A stretch of DNA of 64,000 bases, taken from NCBI RefSeq assembly GCF_048403405.1, contig NZ_CP183129.1; one strand, written 5' to 3'. The first letter of the stretch is position 1, and the number at the start of each line of letters is the position of its first letter. Of the stretch, positions 14,041-20,856 are shown one piece after another. The notes beneath the pieces were generated by a model, which was given only the letters and a program-made list of their open reading frames with translations, was not told the DNA's origin and searched no databases. The translations under genes were made by a program, and so were the position numbers. The DNA comes from Escherichia coli. Its GTDB lineage: Bacteria; Pseudomonadota; Gammaproteobacteria; Enterobacterales; Enterobacteriaceae.

Positions 14041-14102
14041 TGCGACGCTTACGCGTTTTATCATGCCTACGGGGACCTGACCGTAGGCCGGATAAGGCGT
14101 AC
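14041..14102. repeat. REP/PU palindromic unit, left half, split by IS insertion
   Basis: ccgtaggccggataaggcgtac is a PU-type sequence; its palindromic partner acgccgcatccggc resumes right after the IS at 15535. Confidence 0.6.
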
Positions 14103-14144
14103 TGAACTGCACCCCAAATGTTGGACATAATCTGACATCTGAAG

Positions 14145-14675
14145 GTGCAGTTTATGAAACATTCATTTGAAGTAAAAATTGCCGCTGTAAATCATTACCT
14201 GGCCGGTCATGCAGGCATCATTTCTACGGCAAAACTCTTTCAACTTTCTCACACCAGCCTCTCACACTGGATTAATCTTTTTCTTCTTCACGGTCCTCGG
14301 GCACTGGATTGCAGACACAGGCGTAGCTATTCTCCTGAAGATAAACTTTGCGTGGTTCTTTATGCTCTCGGGCATTCTGAGTCTCTACCCCGGGTAGCTG
14401 CCCGGTTTAACATTCCCAGCCACAACACGGTTAAAAACTGGATAAAAGGCTACCGCAAATCTGGTAATGAGGCCTTTATCAGGCGCAGGAAGGAGAAAAG
14501 CATGACCCGTTCTGATGATACCCATGAAAACGAAGCAAACATGACGCCGGAAGAGATGAAGAATGAGCTGCGTTATCTTCGCGCAGAAAATGCATATCTG
14601 AAAGCCATGCAGGAGCATCTCCTGGAAAAAAAGCGCCAGGAGCTGGAGAAAAAACGAAAGTCATCCGGAGCCTGA
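14145..14675 (+). CDS. IS3-family transposase OrfA (helix-turn-helix and leucine-zipper region)
   Basis: 176-aa ORF with the same architecture as IS150 InsJ but a different sequence. Confidence 0.85.
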   Translation: MQFMKHSFEVKIAAVNHYLAGHAGIISTAKLFQLSHTSLSHWINLFLLHGPRALDCRHRRSYSPEDKLCVVLYALGHSESLPRVAARFNIPSHNTVKNWIKGYRKSGNEAFIRRRKEKSMTRSDDTHENEANMTPEEMKNELRYLRAENAYLKAMQEHLLEKKRQELEKKRKSSGA

Positions 14676-14779
14676 GGTGCGGACACTGCCAGTCTGACCT
14701 GTTAAAGGCTGCAGGGCTGGCCAGAAGCACGCTGTACTACCAGCTGTCACTGCAGAAGGCTAAGGACAAGTATGCTGAT

Positions 14780-15535
<756 letters not shown>

Positions 15536-15664
15536 ACACGCCGCATCCGGCATAAACAAAGCGCACGTTGTTACAATTTACGTTTTAAACCTACGTGCGC
15601 AATAACCCAATAACCCAGACTACGCCAACAGAAGTGCGTTTCTGGGGCGTGTTTTGCCAGGAGT

Positions 15665-15877
15665 TTAATCTCGCGTTTCGATGGTGAGCGGGCGAACCAG
15701 ACCATAAATCACCATTGGCGTTCCGAGGCCAATCAGCAATAAACGGTAGATAATTGAAGGTTTAATACGCTTAATCTGTACTGTGGATGTTTTACTGGAG
15801 TTATTCATTAGTTTGGCCAATAGTTCCATTATTTCAATATGATAAGCCTCGCACTGTTGAAAAGCCAGGCTGCACAT
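15665..15877 (-). CDS. hypothetical small protein with hydrophobic C-terminal segment
   Basis: 70-codon ORF divergent from yiaW; no homology recognised; may be spurious. Confidence 0.2.
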   Translation of the reverse strand: MCSLAFQQCEAYHIEIMELLAKLMNNSSKTSTVQIKRIKPSIIYRLLLIGLGTPMVIYGLVRPLTIETRD

Positions 15878-15990
15878 TTCAGAAAGTATATAAAAAACAA
15901 TATGTCGTTATATAAATAAGGAAATTGCACCGCATTATGGTATTTCATAATATGCGTTAATTGTTCTTTTCTATATTCTCTGAGGGAAAT

Positions 15991-16314
15991 ATGTTCCTGG
16001 ATTATTTTGCATTGGGAGTGCTTATTTTTGTATTTCTGGTGATATTCTATGGGATTATTATTTTACATGATGTTCCCTACCTGATTGCTAAAAAACGTAA
16101 TCATCCACATGCCGACGCCATTCATGTTGCTGGTTGGGTAAGTCTTTTTACGTTACATGTTATCTGGCCATTTTTGTGGATTTGGGCCACGCTTTACCGC
16201 CCGGAGCGGGGATGGGGAATGCAAAACCATGACTCCTCCGTTGTGCAACTACAACAGCGTATTGCCGGGCTGGAGAAACAGCTCGCCGACATCAAATCCT
16301 CTTCTGCCGAGTAA
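15991..16314 (+). CDS. yiaW: DUF3302-family small inner-membrane protein
   Basis: 107 aa from the ATG at 15991 ([13 protein letters not shown]...); two hydrophobic segments then a coiled-coil tail; ends 5 bp before yiaV. Confidence 0.85.
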
Positions 16315-16319
16315 TACTT

Positions 16320-17456
16320 ATGGATTTACTGATTATTTTAACCTATGTGGCTTTCGCATGGGCAATGTTTAAGATCTTCAAAATTCCTGTAAATAAATGG
16401 ACCATTCCCACAGCGGCCCTGGGTGGCATATTTATTGTCAGCGGTTTAATTCTGTTAATGAACTATAACCATCCGTATACCTTTAAAGCGCAAAAAGCGG
16501 TTATTTCTATTCCTGTTGTCCCACAGGTGACAGGCGTGGTGATCGAAGTGACGGACAAGAAAAATACGCTGATTAAAAAAGGTGAGGTGCTATTTCGACT
16601 GGACCCGACGCGTTATCAGGCGCGGGTGGATCGGCTGATGGCGGATATCGTTACCGCAGAACATAAACAGCGGGCGTTGGGCGCAGAGTTAGATGAGATG
16701 GCGGCGAATACTCAGCAGGCAAAGGCCACGCGGGATAAATTCGCTAAAGAGTATCAGCGTTACGCACGCGGCAGTCAGGCGAAAGTAAACCCGTTTTCAG
16801 AACGTGATATCGATGTGGCGCGGCAAAATTATCTGGCACAGGAAGCCTCCGTAAAATCAGCGGCGGCGGAACAAAAACAGATCCTGAGCCAGCTGGATAG
16901 CCTGGTGTTGGGTGAACATTCTCAAATCGCCAGCCTGAAAGCACAGCTCGCGGAAGCAAAATATAACCTTGAGCAGACGATAGTGCGTGCGCCGAGCGAT
17001 GGTTATGTGACCCAGGTACTGATTCGTCCGGGTACCTATGCCGCGTCGCTGCCGCTACGTCCGGTGATGGTGTTTATACCCGATCAGAAACGACAAATCG
17101 TGGCGCAGTTCCGTCAGAACTCCTTGCTGCGACTGGCTCCTGGCGACGATGCGGAAGTGGTGTTTAATGCTCTGCCAGGTAAGGTATTCAGCGGTAAGCT
17201 GGCAGCCATTAGTCCAGCCGTTCCCGGCGGAGCTTATCAGTCGACCGGCACCTTACAGACGTTAAACACAGCGCCGGGTTCAGATGGCGTTATCGCGACC
17301 ATTGAACTGGATGAGCATACTGATTTGAGCGCATTACCAGACGGTATTTACGCCCAGGTGGCGGTCTACTCTGATCATTTCAGCCATGTCTCGGTGATGC
17401 GCAAAGTACTGTTACGCATGACCAGCTGGGTGCATTACCTTTATCTCGATCATTAA
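16320..17456 (+). CDS. yiaV: HlyD-family membrane fusion protein
   Basis: 378-aa ORF, N-terminal membrane anchor plus coiled-coil/barrel-sandwich-type sequence; paralog of the yibH fragment at the window start. Confidence 0.9.
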
Positions 17457-18427
17457 TCTTCGCTTTCCGCCGTTTGTTCAGGCCGCAGTTGCTGCGACTG
17501 AGCAAGCTGGTGGCGAATTTCACGCAGCATTTCATCCAGCACATACTGGACCCGCCAGGGCTGGTATTCCCGTTTACGGAAGATAGCCACCAGATCCAGC
17601 CACCATTCATACGGGTGCTGAAAGCAGGGCACCAGCGTGCCGTCTTGCAGGTCGCTCTGCACACTTTTGTCTGGCGCAAACACAATCCCCAGGTGATTTC
17701 GTGCCAGCTCCAGCGCAGATTGCGTGTTGTCGCAAACGTAATTTCCCTTCACGCGATAATCCCGCACCTCTTTACTCCCGGCGACGTTGAAGCGCCAGAT
17801 ATTCGCGTCGTCGATCATCATCGAGTCGATCAAAATACAGGAGCGATGTTCGAGTTCGTCAGGACGGCTAATGGGATGTTTCTCAAGATAGCGCTGGCTG
17901 GCATAAGCGGTTACGGCATATTGGGTAATAAAACTGGCAACCAGCGATTCATCTTTTGGTTGGGCGTAGCTGATTAAAACATCACAATCATCGGGAAATT
18001 CGACGCCTTCATAAAAGGCATTACGCTCAAGATTGCAGGTTTTTAGCGATAAGGTGATATCACCGATATCTTTAATTTTATCGATTACATGTTTGGATAA
18101 ATAGGTAATTATGCCGGTTGGTGCATAGATAGTGACCCGACCACGTTTCTCATGCTTATAATCTGCAATAAAATTATTAAGCTGCTCGTTTCTGTCCAGC
18201 ATGTCGTTGATGTACGGTAACAGCACGGTGCCAAAAGGTGTGAGCATCAGCTGTCGGGTGGTTCGGTCAAAGACTTTTAAACCCACTTTTGATTCAAAAT
18301 CAGCAAGATATTTGCTGACGTTGGCCTGTGCGATGCCAAGTACAGTCGCGGCATGGCTGATATTTTCACTGGCAGCGATTACCGAGATAATTTTTAACTC
18401 CCGGTACTTAAGTTGTAATTTTGTCAT
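17453..18427 (-). CDS. yiaU: LysR-family transcriptional regulator
   Basis: 324-aa ORF with N-terminal LysR-type HTH; convergent with yiaV (4-bp 3' overlap). Confidence 0.9.
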
Positions 18428-18550
18428 CGCAACAGCCCAATTATATATAATTTTATATATTACTATATAAATATGAATCTTGCACCGGATAAATTGTAAG
18501 CATTACTATGCCGACTCTTTTTTATCTTATTTTAAAATGGAATACCGGAC

Positions 18551-19291
18551 ATGTTAATTAACCGCAATATTGTGGCGTTATTTGCGTTGCCTTTTATGGC
18601 AAGCGCAACTGCTTCTGAATTATCCATTGGTGCTGGTGCGGCTTATAATGAATCGCCTTATCGCGGTTATAATGAAAATACAAAGGCAATTCCGCTGATT
18701 AGTTATGAAGGTGATACTTTTTATGTTCGTCAGACCACGTTAGGTTTTATTCTGTCGCAAAGTGAAAAAAATGAACTTAGCCTGACCGCATCCTGGATGC
18801 CGCTGGAATTTGACCCTGCCGATAATGACGATTATGCCATGCAACAGCTTGATAAGCGTGATAGTACGGCTATGGCGGGGGTTGCCTGGTATCACCACGA
18901 GCGTTGGGGAACCGTGAAAGCCTCTGCGGCTGCGGACGTTCTGGATAACAGCAACGGCTGGGTGGGGGAGCTATCGGTATTCCACAAAATGCAGATAGGT
19001 CGCCTGTCGCTGACACCTGCGCTGGGCGTTCTCTATTATGACGAGAATTTCAGTGACTATTACTATGGCATTTCAGAGAGTGAGTCCCGTCGTAGCGGTC
19101 TGGCAAGTTATTCCGCGCAGGATGCCTGGGTGCCCTATGTCAGCCTGACGGCAAAATACCCGATAGGAGAGCACGTCGTATTGATGGCGAGCGCAGGATA
19201 CAGCGAGCTGCCGGAAGAGATTACCGACAGCCCGATGGTTGATCGTAATGAGAGTTTTACCTTTGTCACTGGCGTGAGCTGGCGTTTTTAA
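18551..19291 (+). CDS. yiaT: MipA/OmpV-family outer membrane protein
   Basis: 246-aa ORF with signal peptide and beta-barrel-like alternating pattern ending ...GVSWRF. Confidence 0.85.
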   Translation: MLINRNIVALFALPFMASATASELSIGAGAAYNESPYRGYNENTKAIPLISYEGDTFYVRQTTLGFILSQSEKNELSLTASWMPLEFDPADNDDYAMQQLDKRDSTAMAGVAWYHHERWGTVKASAAADVLDNSNGWVGELSVFHKMQIGRLSLTPALGVLYYDENFSDYYYGISESESRRSGLASYSAQDAWVPYVSLTAKYPIGEHVVLMASAGYSELPEEITDSPMVDRNESFTFVTGVSWRF

Positions 19292-19335
19292 TTCACCGGT
19301 GGATGTCGGTGCGGCTGGCCTACGCTCTCGCACCG

Positions 19336-20116
<781 letters not shown>

Positions 20117-20220
20117 ATCAGCATACTTGTCCTTAGCCTTCTGCAGTGACAGCTGGTAGTACAGCGTGCTTCTGGCCAGCCCTGCAGCCTTTAACAGGTC
20201 AGACTGGCAGTGTCCGCACC

Positions 20221-20751
20221 TCAGGCTCCGGATGACTTTCGTTTTTTCTCCAGCTCCTGGCGCTTTTTTTCCAGGAGATGCTCCTGCATGGCTTTCAGAT
20301 ATGCATTTTCTGCGCGAAGATAACGCAGCTCATTCTTCATCTCTTCCGGCGTCATGTTTGCTTCGTTTTCATGGGTATCATCAGAACGGGTCATGCTTTT
20401 CTCCTTCCTGCGCCTGATAAAGGCCTCATTACCAGATTTGCGGTAGCCTTTTATCCAGTTTTTAACCGTGTTGTGGCTGGGAATGTTAAACCGGGCAGCT
20501 ACCCGGGGTAGAGACTCAGAATGCCCGAGAGCATAAAGAACCACGCAAAGTTTATCTTCAGGAGAATAGCTACGCCTGTGTCTGCAATCCAGTGCCCGAG
20601 GACCGTGAAGAAGAAAAAGATTAATCCAGTGTGAGAGGCTGGTGTGAGAAAGTTGAAAGAGTTTTGCCGTAGAAATGATGCCTGCATGACCGGCCAGGTA
20701 ATGATTTACAGCGGCAATTTTTACTTCAAATGAATGTTTCATAAACTGCAC
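20221..20751 (-). CDS. IS3-family transposase OrfA, copy 2
   Basis: 176-aa translation identical to 14145..14675. Confidence 0.85.
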   Translation of the reverse strand: MQFMKHSFEVKIAAVNHYLAGHAGIISTAKLFQLSHTSLSHWINLFLLHGPRALDCRHRRSYSPEDKLCVVLYALGHSESLPRVAARFNIPSHNTVKNWIKGYRKSGNEAFIRRRKEKSMTRSDDTHENEANMTPEEMKNELRYLRAENAYLKAMQEHLLEKKRQELEKKRKSSGA

Positions 20752-20856
20752 CTTCAGATGTCAGATTATGTCCAACATTTGGGGTGCAGTTCAGTTAAGC
20801 GTCGCATCAGGCAATGTGCACCCTACGGTGGATGCGGCGCGAGTGCCTTATCCAAC

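Follow-up and report, generated by a model that had tools for sequence, protein, structure and literature searches.

YiaW-YiaV of Escherichia coli, a conserved DUF3302-adaptor gene pair and possible core of an uncharacterised family of tripartite-type exporters

Adaptor genes of the bacterial envelope are normally found in one operon with their pump. In a 64,000-nucleotide (nt) stretch of the E. coli contig NZ_CP183129.1 (the window), the adaptor gene yiaV is preceded by yiaW, which encodes a small membrane protein of the family DUF3302. The window annotation contains no ATP-binding cassette (ABC), resistance-nodulation-division (RND), major facilitator superfamily (MFS) efflux or FUSC gene beside this pair, and the transporter and outer-membrane factor (OMF) of a tripartite system are absent from its side within the window. 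Which complex might YiaW and YiaV build, and with which partners? The cluster comprises four genes:

15991-16314, plus strand: yiaW, 107 aa from ATG, DUF3302
16320-17456, plus strand: yiaV, 378 aa, HlyD/EmrA-type adaptor, 5 nt past the yiaW stop
17453-18427, minus strand: yiaU (CsuR/LpsR), 324 aa, LysR-type regulator, divergent from yiaT
18551-19291, plus strand: yiaT, 246 aa, outer-membrane protein of the MipA/OmpV family

An earlier interpretation made from the DNA letters (the sequence-only reading) had described this gene order, the gene sizes, the 5-bp gap between yiaW and yiaV, the convergent yiaU and the following yiaT, with which the coordinates of the open reading frames (ORFs) agree. 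It had proposed a two-part envelope-spanning module lacking a defined function, and none is defined in the accessible literature.

The DUF3302 gene and the adaptor gene occur together in both search directions. The forward scan was performed with the DUF3302 alignment on one genome per species and returned 76 loci from Enterobacterales, Aeromonas, Vibrio, Ferrimonas, Rhizobium and metagenome-assembled genomes (MAGs). A YiaV-like adaptor gene directly follows DUF3302 in all forward loci with any downstream DNA (75/75). The distance from the DUF3302 stop to the adaptor start ranges from -1 to +9 nt in the 70 measured pairs, which implies translational coupling. The pair is likewise present in individually checked distant members, from a 7-Mb genome, Colwelliaceae, Pseudomonas, a Pseudomonadota MAG and metagenome contigs. 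The reverse scan of metagenomes was seeded with the adaptor, used a distant member as the first sequence and yielded 80 diverse loci. DUF3302 lies directly upstream wherever the contig has room (about 66 of 68 loci), apart from L124 and L165, two soil contigs related to each other; the DUF3302 copy is frameshifted in L139 and truncated in L120. By these comparisons, YiaW-YiaV is an obligate, conserved two-gene module, which occurs in Aeromonas, Vibrio, Ferrimonas, Colwelliaceae, Pseudomonas, Rhizobium, Sulfurimonas and many metagenome lineages. The two-part module of the sequence-only reading is real, and the neighbourhood comparison that it had called for clearly places the co-occurrence far beyond the Enterobacteriaceae; restriction to that family, which it had named as a refuting outcome, is thereby contradicted.

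Frameshifts within the adaptor or DUF3302 gene were also observed in public assemblies (L068, 8360-9494; L069, 8363-9408; L139, approximately 2400-2750; L173, 9085-10039). These are either sequencing errors or real pseudogenes.

YiaW matches the full Pfam model of DUF3302 (PF11742) at positions 1-77 (3.3e-43). Its AlphaFold2 (AF2) model, with a predicted local distance difference test score (pLDDT) of 87.6, contains helices at residues 2-35, 41-68 and 82-106, and fits two membrane helices followed by a C-terminal helix. The tight turn between the two long helices bears a nearly invariant R-x-HPH-x-DA motif. The alignment core (HDIP...R.HPH.DA...W.SLF...WP.LW.WA) is very strongly conserved across the family, with HDVP in E. 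coli YiaW at the position of HDIP. The family comprises 868 cluster representatives at 50% identity, and members of separate 50%-identity clusters are still 45-75% identical. The charge bias of YiaW is small, with both the loop and the tail near neutral, and Lys and Arg are absent from the N-terminal tail in 21 of 21 sequences, which hints at an N-out/C-out topology. A search for solved structures of DUF3302 returned none, only chance-level matches (E >= 0.02). Homology to AaeX/DUF1656 was considered and rejected, with an hhalign probability of 0.1 between the DUF3302 alignment and AaeX; the AaeX query sequence was confirmed by NCBIfam (133 bits).

YiaV is recognised by the Pfam models CusB_dom_1 (PF00529, 5.3e-15) and HlyD_D23 (PF16576, 7.2e-9), and scores slightly under the cut-off of the generic RND_mfp model TIGR01730 (87.5 versus 94.9 bits). 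Matches to the specific models stay well below their cut-offs: EmrA/EmrK TIGR00998 (110.6 versus 390.8 bits), MdtN NF007785 (111.8 versus 376), AaeA NF007850 (60.8 versus 400) and EmrA NF011715 (51.4 versus 563). These curated thresholds place YiaV outside the EmrA/EmrK, MdtN and AaeA subfamilies. The AF2 model (pLDDT 82) contains membrane helices at residues 2-19 and 28-50, lipoyl strands, a β-barrel and a C-terminal helix at 355-374. A coiled-coil α-hairpin is formed by helices 97-152 and 161-218 (56 and 58 residues; approximately 116 overall) with β-strands on either side, and the membrane-proximal domain is absent from the model. In a Foldseek search the top match of this model is E. coli EmrA in EmrAB-TolC (8zal/8zar; E 3e-21, TM-score 0.63-0.68 over 312-337 columns), followed by MacA, AcrA and MexA, and EmrA is also the best sequence match among solved structures (1.8e-11). 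By its domains and its predicted fold, YiaV qualifies as a membrane fusion protein (MFP), or periplasmic adaptor, of the HlyD superfamily.

YiaV and EmrA share the lipoyl domain, the long α-hairpin and the β-barrel, and neither has a membrane-proximal domain; each is attached to the inner membrane by an anchor instead of a lipid modification. YiaV is set apart from EmrA by two highly conserved membrane helices at the N-terminus and by a conserved helix at the C-terminus; its gene never adjoins an EmrB-type MFS pump in approximately 170 loci, and is preceded almost without exception by DUF3302. A further relative in organisation is aaeXAB, in which a small membrane-protein gene lies directly upstream of an EmrA-clade adaptor gene, with a LysR regulator nearby. 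The yiaWV pair resembles this p-hydroxybenzoate efflux system in the order of small membrane-protein gene and EmrA-clade adaptor gene, and AaeA is among the NCBIfam matches of YiaV. In contrast to AaeX-AaeA-AaeB, the pair is not followed by an AaeB/FUSC gene, and DUF3302 is not an AaeX homologue.

The distribution of conserved residues in YiaV is inverted. Conservation was calculated as the mean frequency of the commonest residue over 20 divergent members of a 45-member alignment. It reaches 0.79 in the N-terminal membrane hairpin (MDLL..L.Y.A....FK.F..P.NKWT..TA.LGG...MNYNHP) and 0.70 in the C-terminal helix, compared with approximately 0.6 in the lipoyl and barrel parts and 0.39 in the α-hairpin. 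Ordinary adaptors show their lowest conservation in the membrane anchor; the reversed order in YiaV points to a function inside the membrane. Across the family the α-hairpin falls into discrete length classes of 54, 69, 82 and 114-121 residues. At its tip, R147, G151, N157-P-F-S160 and D165 of YiaV are conserved. Conserved histidines are located near the membrane surfaces in both proteins (the HPH motif and H26 of YiaW; NYNHP, H356 and H378 of YiaV). Together with the cation-related neighbours described below, they offer a hint, which is speculative, of cations or proton coupling.

The genes that travel with the pair identify candidate partners. Across the approximately 170 loci, no pump of the ABC, RND, MFS or FUSC type is a recurrent neighbour of the pair. 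In Enterobacterales, Vibrio and Aeromonas the neighbours reflect lineage synteny (selAB-yiaY-aldB, mtlADR) or are unrelated genes. Possible pumps among the Vibrio and Aeromonas neighbours were rejected on identification as DeoD, diguanylate cyclases, CstA, RadD and PBP4, and an ABC-2 permease in L079 was rejected as a recurrent partner, being convergent with the pair and found once. A TolC/NodT-type OMF gene is linked to the pair in 11 loci: it directly follows the adaptor gene in nine metagenome loci and in Sulfurimonas (L172), and directly precedes DUF3302 in L002. One of these OMFs exceeds the cut-off of the NodT model TIGR01845 (284 versus 210 bits). A protein of approximately 400 aa of the Na_H_Exchanger family (cation/proton antiporter, CPA) is encoded with the pair in 15 loci, of which 13 are metagenome loci with adjacent genes. 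It matches PF00999 at 1.2e-41; its best NCBIfam model, an NhaP2-type K+/H+ antiporter, is matched below the cut-off. In the 13 metagenome loci it occupies at least five arrangements (W, DUF3302 gene; V, adaptor gene):

CPA-W-V-OMF: L094, L097 and L098; in L092, CPA-W-V runs to the contig end
W-V-OMF-CPA: L162
W-V-CPA: L122, L156 and L135
CPA convergent with the pair: L148, L164, L166 and L157
CPA divergent from the pair: L110

The CPA proteins have a median pairwise identity of 42%, and the CPA-linked loci are spread over three or more separate clades in the adaptor tree. When the CPA side was taken as the starting point, with three members on large contigs, linkage to the pair was found in two of the three genomes. 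In Sulfurimonas (Campylobacterota; L172, 6001-9872), the genes form a compact operon of CPA, DUF3302, MFP and outer-membrane efflux protein (OEP) with gaps of 9, 1 and 10 nt. The second genome carries Ion_trans_2-CPA, two genes, DUF3302 and a frameshifted adaptor gene, and the third carries Ion_trans_2-CPA only. A Na_H_Exchanger gene beside the pair in L006 belongs to another subfamily and was left out of the association.

Among the 27 metagenome loci with ample flanks, an OMF is present in five and a CPA in five. These counts describe the pair as an invariant core, with OMF and CPA as frequent but optional operon partners. The absence of a cognate pump, as the sequence-only reading put it, thus holds locally in E. 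coli and fails for the family, in which distant operons contain a NodT/TolC-type OMF and a CPA transporter. In having one operon with a NodT-family OMF and an inner-membrane secondary transporter, the distant relatives resemble classical tripartite systems (MdtNOP, CusCBA and NodT-family operons). They differ from these in that the transporter is a Na_H_Exchanger (CPA) protein rather than an RND, ABC, MFS or FUSC protein, and the E. coli pair differs in being linked to neither a transporter nor an OMF. No description of an adaptor-OMF system with a CPA transporter was found in the accessible literature.

Several other families are found near the pair. Ion_trans_2 (K+-channel-like) genes occur in several loci, and MscK occurs once. 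A small Ion_trans_2 gene adjoins the same CPA subfamily in L171 (5650-7203), L173 (5609-7218), L174 (4107-5716) and L097/L098/L148/L164; the Ion_trans_2-CPA combination also occurs where the DUF3302-adaptor pair is missing, and may be conserved as a unit of its own. PqiA/PqiB genes lie beside the pair in six metagenome loci (L101, L102, L110, L115, L121 and L145), which contain pqiA (as two parts in some), pqiB and a probable pqiC in varying orientations. Their position reflects either function or inherited synteny. Genes for DUF3313 lipoproteins lie close to the pair or immediately before it in Serratia, Enterobacter, Yersinia, Pseudomonas and three metagenome loci (L064, 7289-7960; L066, 7217-7960; L030, 7193-7861; L032, 6984-7652; L089, 8798-9469; L103, 4723-5391; L108, 4731-5474). 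The proteins carry a lipobox, match PF11769 (5.7e-45 for L064) and may be an optional third component. The pair has a MipA-family gene as neighbour in Escherichia/Citrobacter, Serratia (L066) and the distant metagenome loci L157 and L164, and the L157 neighbour matches Pfam MipA at 2.9e-30.

On balance, we lean slightly towards the view that YiaW-YiaV is the core of an uncharacterised family of tripartite-type exporters. The OMF and CPA operons of distant lineages make the module look like the adaptor core of a tripartite exporter rather than an adaptor that docks on YiaT. YiaW and YiaV would be two obligate subunits of one inner-membrane complex in direct contact. The membrane base would consist of the two helices of YiaW, and the two-helix hairpin and conserved amphipathic C-terminal helix of YiaV. 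YiaV would oligomerise, presumably as a hexamer, and its long α-hairpin would reach an outer-membrane channel; in E. coli, docking would most likely occur on unlinked TolC, as for EmrA, AcrA and MacA. Where co-encoded, the CPA transporter, the sole recurrent candidate for an energising component, would supply transport and energy. In Enterobacterales the OMF and CPA are unlinked, with the pair transcribed from a promoter whose operator is common to yiaT, and the E. coli pair may also use a CPA transporter. The neighbours hint at cations or at osmotic/ionic stress as the context of the substrate, and coupling to the proton motive force or to cations is conceivable.

A more specific version, which we consider possible and no more than tentative, sees in CPA-DUF3302-MFP-OMF a genuine, previously undescribed pump class, additional to the RND, ABC, MFS and FUSC types, and has E. 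coli rely on a CPA encoded elsewhere. The CPA would then energise an envelope-spanning transporter, often with a K+-channel-like gene alongside, and cations or cationic compounds would be moved across the whole envelope under ionic/osmotic stress. YiaWV and YibIH, the product of a paralogous pair described below, would represent "unlinked" forms, which either draw on TolC and a CPA antiporter already present in the cell or make up a minimal conduit alone.

A number of observations weigh against an exporter core. The spread of the α-hairpin from 54 to 121 residues is unusual for one conserved docking geometry. The canonical hairpin-tip "RLS" motif for TolC docking in MacA and AcrA is R-x3-L-x6-S, and a regular-expression search did not find it in YiaV. 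In 16 of the 27 amply flanked metagenome loci (59%), none of the recurrent partners is present, and the pair may accordingly work alone or with varying partners. No Enterobacterales, Vibrio or Aeromonas locus links the pair to an OMF or CPA, and the window contains no homologue of the pair-linked CPA subfamily. The functional signal is also not unique, given the additional PqiABC, DUF3313, MipA and K+-channel-like neighbours. Finally, the published E. coli phenotypes are weak or indirect, and disruption of yiaW alone had no macrophage phenotype (PMC5495878).

Three other explanations were considered. YiaV and YibH could be orphan EmrA-type adaptors that serve a distant classical pump, such as an unpaired DHA2-type MFS or an ABC transporter, with YiaW as a dispensable accessory like AaeX or AcrZ. 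The closest sequence families (MdtN, EmrA/EmrK and AaeA) and the closest fold (EmrA in EmrAB-TolC) agree with such a role; many E. coli adaptors use unlinked TolC, and aaeXAB supplies a precedent for the small upstream gene. However, the subfamily scores are far below the cut-offs (approximately 111 bits versus 376-391), and approximately 170 loci from many lineages yield no recurrent MFS, ABC, RND or FUSC neighbour of the pair. DUF3302, near-universal beside the adaptor, very highly conserved and without homology to AaeX, does not look dispensable, and the transmembrane hairpin is the most conserved part of YiaV. An orphan adaptor is thus an unlikely solution.

The pair could instead form a pump-independent envelope module with YiaT, a trans-periplasmic tether or sensor that touches YiaT or peptidoglycan-associated machinery and acts in maintenance or stress signalling. 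This would account for the operator common to yiaW and yiaT, the MipA-family genes beside the pair in Escherichia/Citrobacter, L066, L157 and L164, and the recurrence of DUF3313 lipoproteins and PqiABC nearby. The YiaU/CsuR regulon is moreover tied to the cell surface, biofilm and complement/antibiotic sensitivity, as cited in PMC9308461. MipA-family neighbours are, however, confined to a small minority of loci, whereas TolC/NodT-type factors, the known docking partners of α-hairpins, are operonic in 11. MipA-type proteins are small barrels, and we know of no periplasmic tunnel in them that could take the hairpin. We give such a module little credence, about as much as the orphan adaptor. The sequence-only reading had suggested that the adaptor works with YiaT; the link survives in the common operator block and the recurrent MipA neighbours, and docking of the adaptor on YiaT is not favoured in view of the operonic OMF and CPA. 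An accessory or regulatory unit of cation homeostasis, in which the pair modulates or scaffolds CPA and K+-channel-like transporters with no outward channel, would fit the recurrent CPA antiporter and Ion_trans_2 neighbours, the single MscK, the Ion_trans_2-CPA pairs that exist apart from the module, the urine induction of yibI with loss of fitness of ΔyibI in urine (PMC5404293) and the growth phenotype of ΔyiaU at 0.3 M NaCl (PMC9068703). It leaves the complete EmrA-like adaptor fold and the operonic OMF genes unexplained, and most loci have no cation transporter nearby; we consider it very unlikely.

The regulation of the E. coli pair can be read from a 52-nt direct repeat, which is present upstream of yiaW (15884-15935) and in the yiaU/yiaT intergenic region (18439-18490). 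The two control regions are as follows:

15884-15953, plus strand: yiaW control region, with AT-rich dyad, TATATAAATA box, N6, TTGCAC at 15925-15930 (-35-like), 17-nt spacer and TAATAT at 15948-15953 (-10-like)
18439-18510, plus strand: yiaU/yiaT control region, with second dyad and copy of TATATAAATA-N6-TTGCAC, 18 nt and TACTAT (-10-like)

The dyad reads TATATA-N7-ATATAT in orthologues. The combination TATATAAATA-N6-TTGCA occurs exactly twice in the 64-kb window, compared with 0 expected from shuffles. The operator block is kept at both promoters of 11 orthologous Citrobacter/Pseudocitrobacter loci, in contrast to its diverged flanks. All 11 carry the exact motif at the yiaT site, and 8 carry it at the yiaW site too. 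None of the loci that lack yiaU has the motif, the E. coli yibI/yibH-type locus L041 included. The operator block has the architecture expected for LysR-type control, which implies that yiaWV and yiaT belong to one regulon. Its putative regulator is most likely YiaU, which matches LysR-family models (NCBIfam), and yiaT is probably co-regulated with yiaWV. As in other LysR-type divergons, the regulator gene is divergent from its target, here yiaT, and a dyad and a promoter-proximal box abut the -35 hexamer. Unlike the usual divergon, the operator block is repeated approximately 2.5 kb away before yiaW, and yiaU overlaps the 3´ end of yiaV convergently. YiaU has reportedly been renamed CsuR in 2022 work by Shimada et al.

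YiaT matches the NCBIfam OmpV model at 5.6e-27 (94.9 bits), under the equivalog cut-off of 400, and its RefSeq product name is "MipA/OmpV family protein". Deletion of yiaU derepresses yiaT (log2 +2.8), affects waa genes as well and results in a growth phenotype at 0.3 M NaCl (PMC9068703). The YiaU/CsuR regulon has been tied to cell-surface properties, biofilm, and complement and antibiotic sensitivity (cited in PMC9308461). The 3´ ends of yiaV and yiaU overlap by 4 nt, stop codons included (17453-17456), and RNA-seq coverage has identified yiaU-yiaV as a convergent transcriptional overlap, or "excludon" (PMC12288877). Transcription of yiaWV may therefore feed back on, or interfere with, the presumed regulator gene.

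A paralogue of the pair lies at the left end of the window:

1-810 (ORF 4-810), plus strand: 3´ part of yibH, C-terminal 268 aa, YiaV paralogue

The fragment aligns gaplessly with residues 111-378 of YiaV at 75% protein identity, which gives a value to the earlier statement that most positions are identical. In a genome that matches at 100%, the full yibI (DUF3302)-yibH pair, its genes 2 nt apart, is located directly left of the window; YibI and YiaW share 73% identity. The module is therefore present twice, with one copy next to the Rhs locus, as had been proposed, and yiaWV and yibIH were duplicated as units. An efflux pump gene was found beside neither yibI-yibH nor yiaW-yiaV. In E. coli the Rhs locus (1268-6756, minus strand) comes after yibH and separates the paralogous pairs as an insertion. 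The distance shrinks to about 8 kb in Citrobacter, whose loci have flanking clusters of the same selA/selB/yiaY/aldB type. No functional link of the Rhs locus to the DUF3302-adaptor pairs was found, nor any evidence for a role of the pairs in contact-dependent competition. The Rhs locus itself encodes a core protein of 1376 aa (2626-6756, minus strand) with a variable C-terminal tip, followed by small genes that include an Imm57-family immunity gene (1268-1789, minus strand).

The immediate surroundings of yiaW-yiaV bear out the earlier statement that no ABC, RND or MFS efflux pump is adjacent: the left flank consists of aldB and IS1397, and the right flank of IS1397, a GH127 hydrolase gene and a sugar-type MFS transporter gene. 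The segment 15600-19400 is 100% identical in E. coli strain 4621, where RefSeq annotates yiaW, yiaV, yiaU and yiaT. It is matched by 5395 of 5426 complete E. coli genomes, with coverage of at least 80% in 3722. The two copies of the insertion sequence (IS) IS1397 (IS3 family; 14101-15536 and 19360-20795, 1436 bp each) are inverted and 100% identical. With the complete yiaW-yiaV-yiaU-yiaT cluster between them, the 3.8-kb segment is invertible or resembles a composite transposon. Among the best-matching E. coli genomes, only a few span the query (15600-19400) to the right IS, and the rest match at query positions 1-3762; the double insertion therefore appears strain-specific. A small hydrophobic ORF (15665-15877, minus strand), inside which RefSeq places a 47-aa hypothetical protein, lies between the left IS1397 and the yiaW promoter. 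Anti-phage defence was considered for the Rhs and IS context, and PADLOC models have no match to YiaW, YiaV or YiaT.

Published observations on the pair are few. In uropathogenic E. coli, urine induces yibI, and the ΔyibI mutant competes poorly there, with a competitive index of 0.33 (PMC5404293). A higher Ca2+-mediated transformation efficiency of ΔyiaW is cited in PMC12844161, and yiaV is a hit in a genome-wide association study of Vibrio vulnificus (PMC10485832). These phenotypes are compatible with an envelope or ionic role and are not specific for it. The genes themselves are not new: they are annotated, uncharacterised y-genes. Judged by the accessible literature, the cross-phyla obligate pairing, the inverted conservation of the adaptor and the OMF and CPA operon partners are new, as is the duplicated operator, which the CsuR study (Shimada et al. 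2022) may already cover.

The yiaWV and yibIH genes are among the last membrane fusion protein genes of E. coli without a partner or a function. Our analysis suggests that the unit for study is the DUF3302-adaptor pair rather than the adaptor by itself, and that its function is probably located in the unusually conserved transmembrane parts. Concrete candidate partners are supplied by the relatives: TolC/NodT-type channels, a specific CPA antiporter subfamily and MipA/OmpV proteins. The induction of yibI in urine and the fitness defect of the mutant suggest relevance in the host (PMC5404293). If the CPA-linked operons encode a real complex, it would represent a new tripartite transporter architecture, with consequences for ion homeostasis, for envelope biology and possibly for tolerance of cationic compounds.

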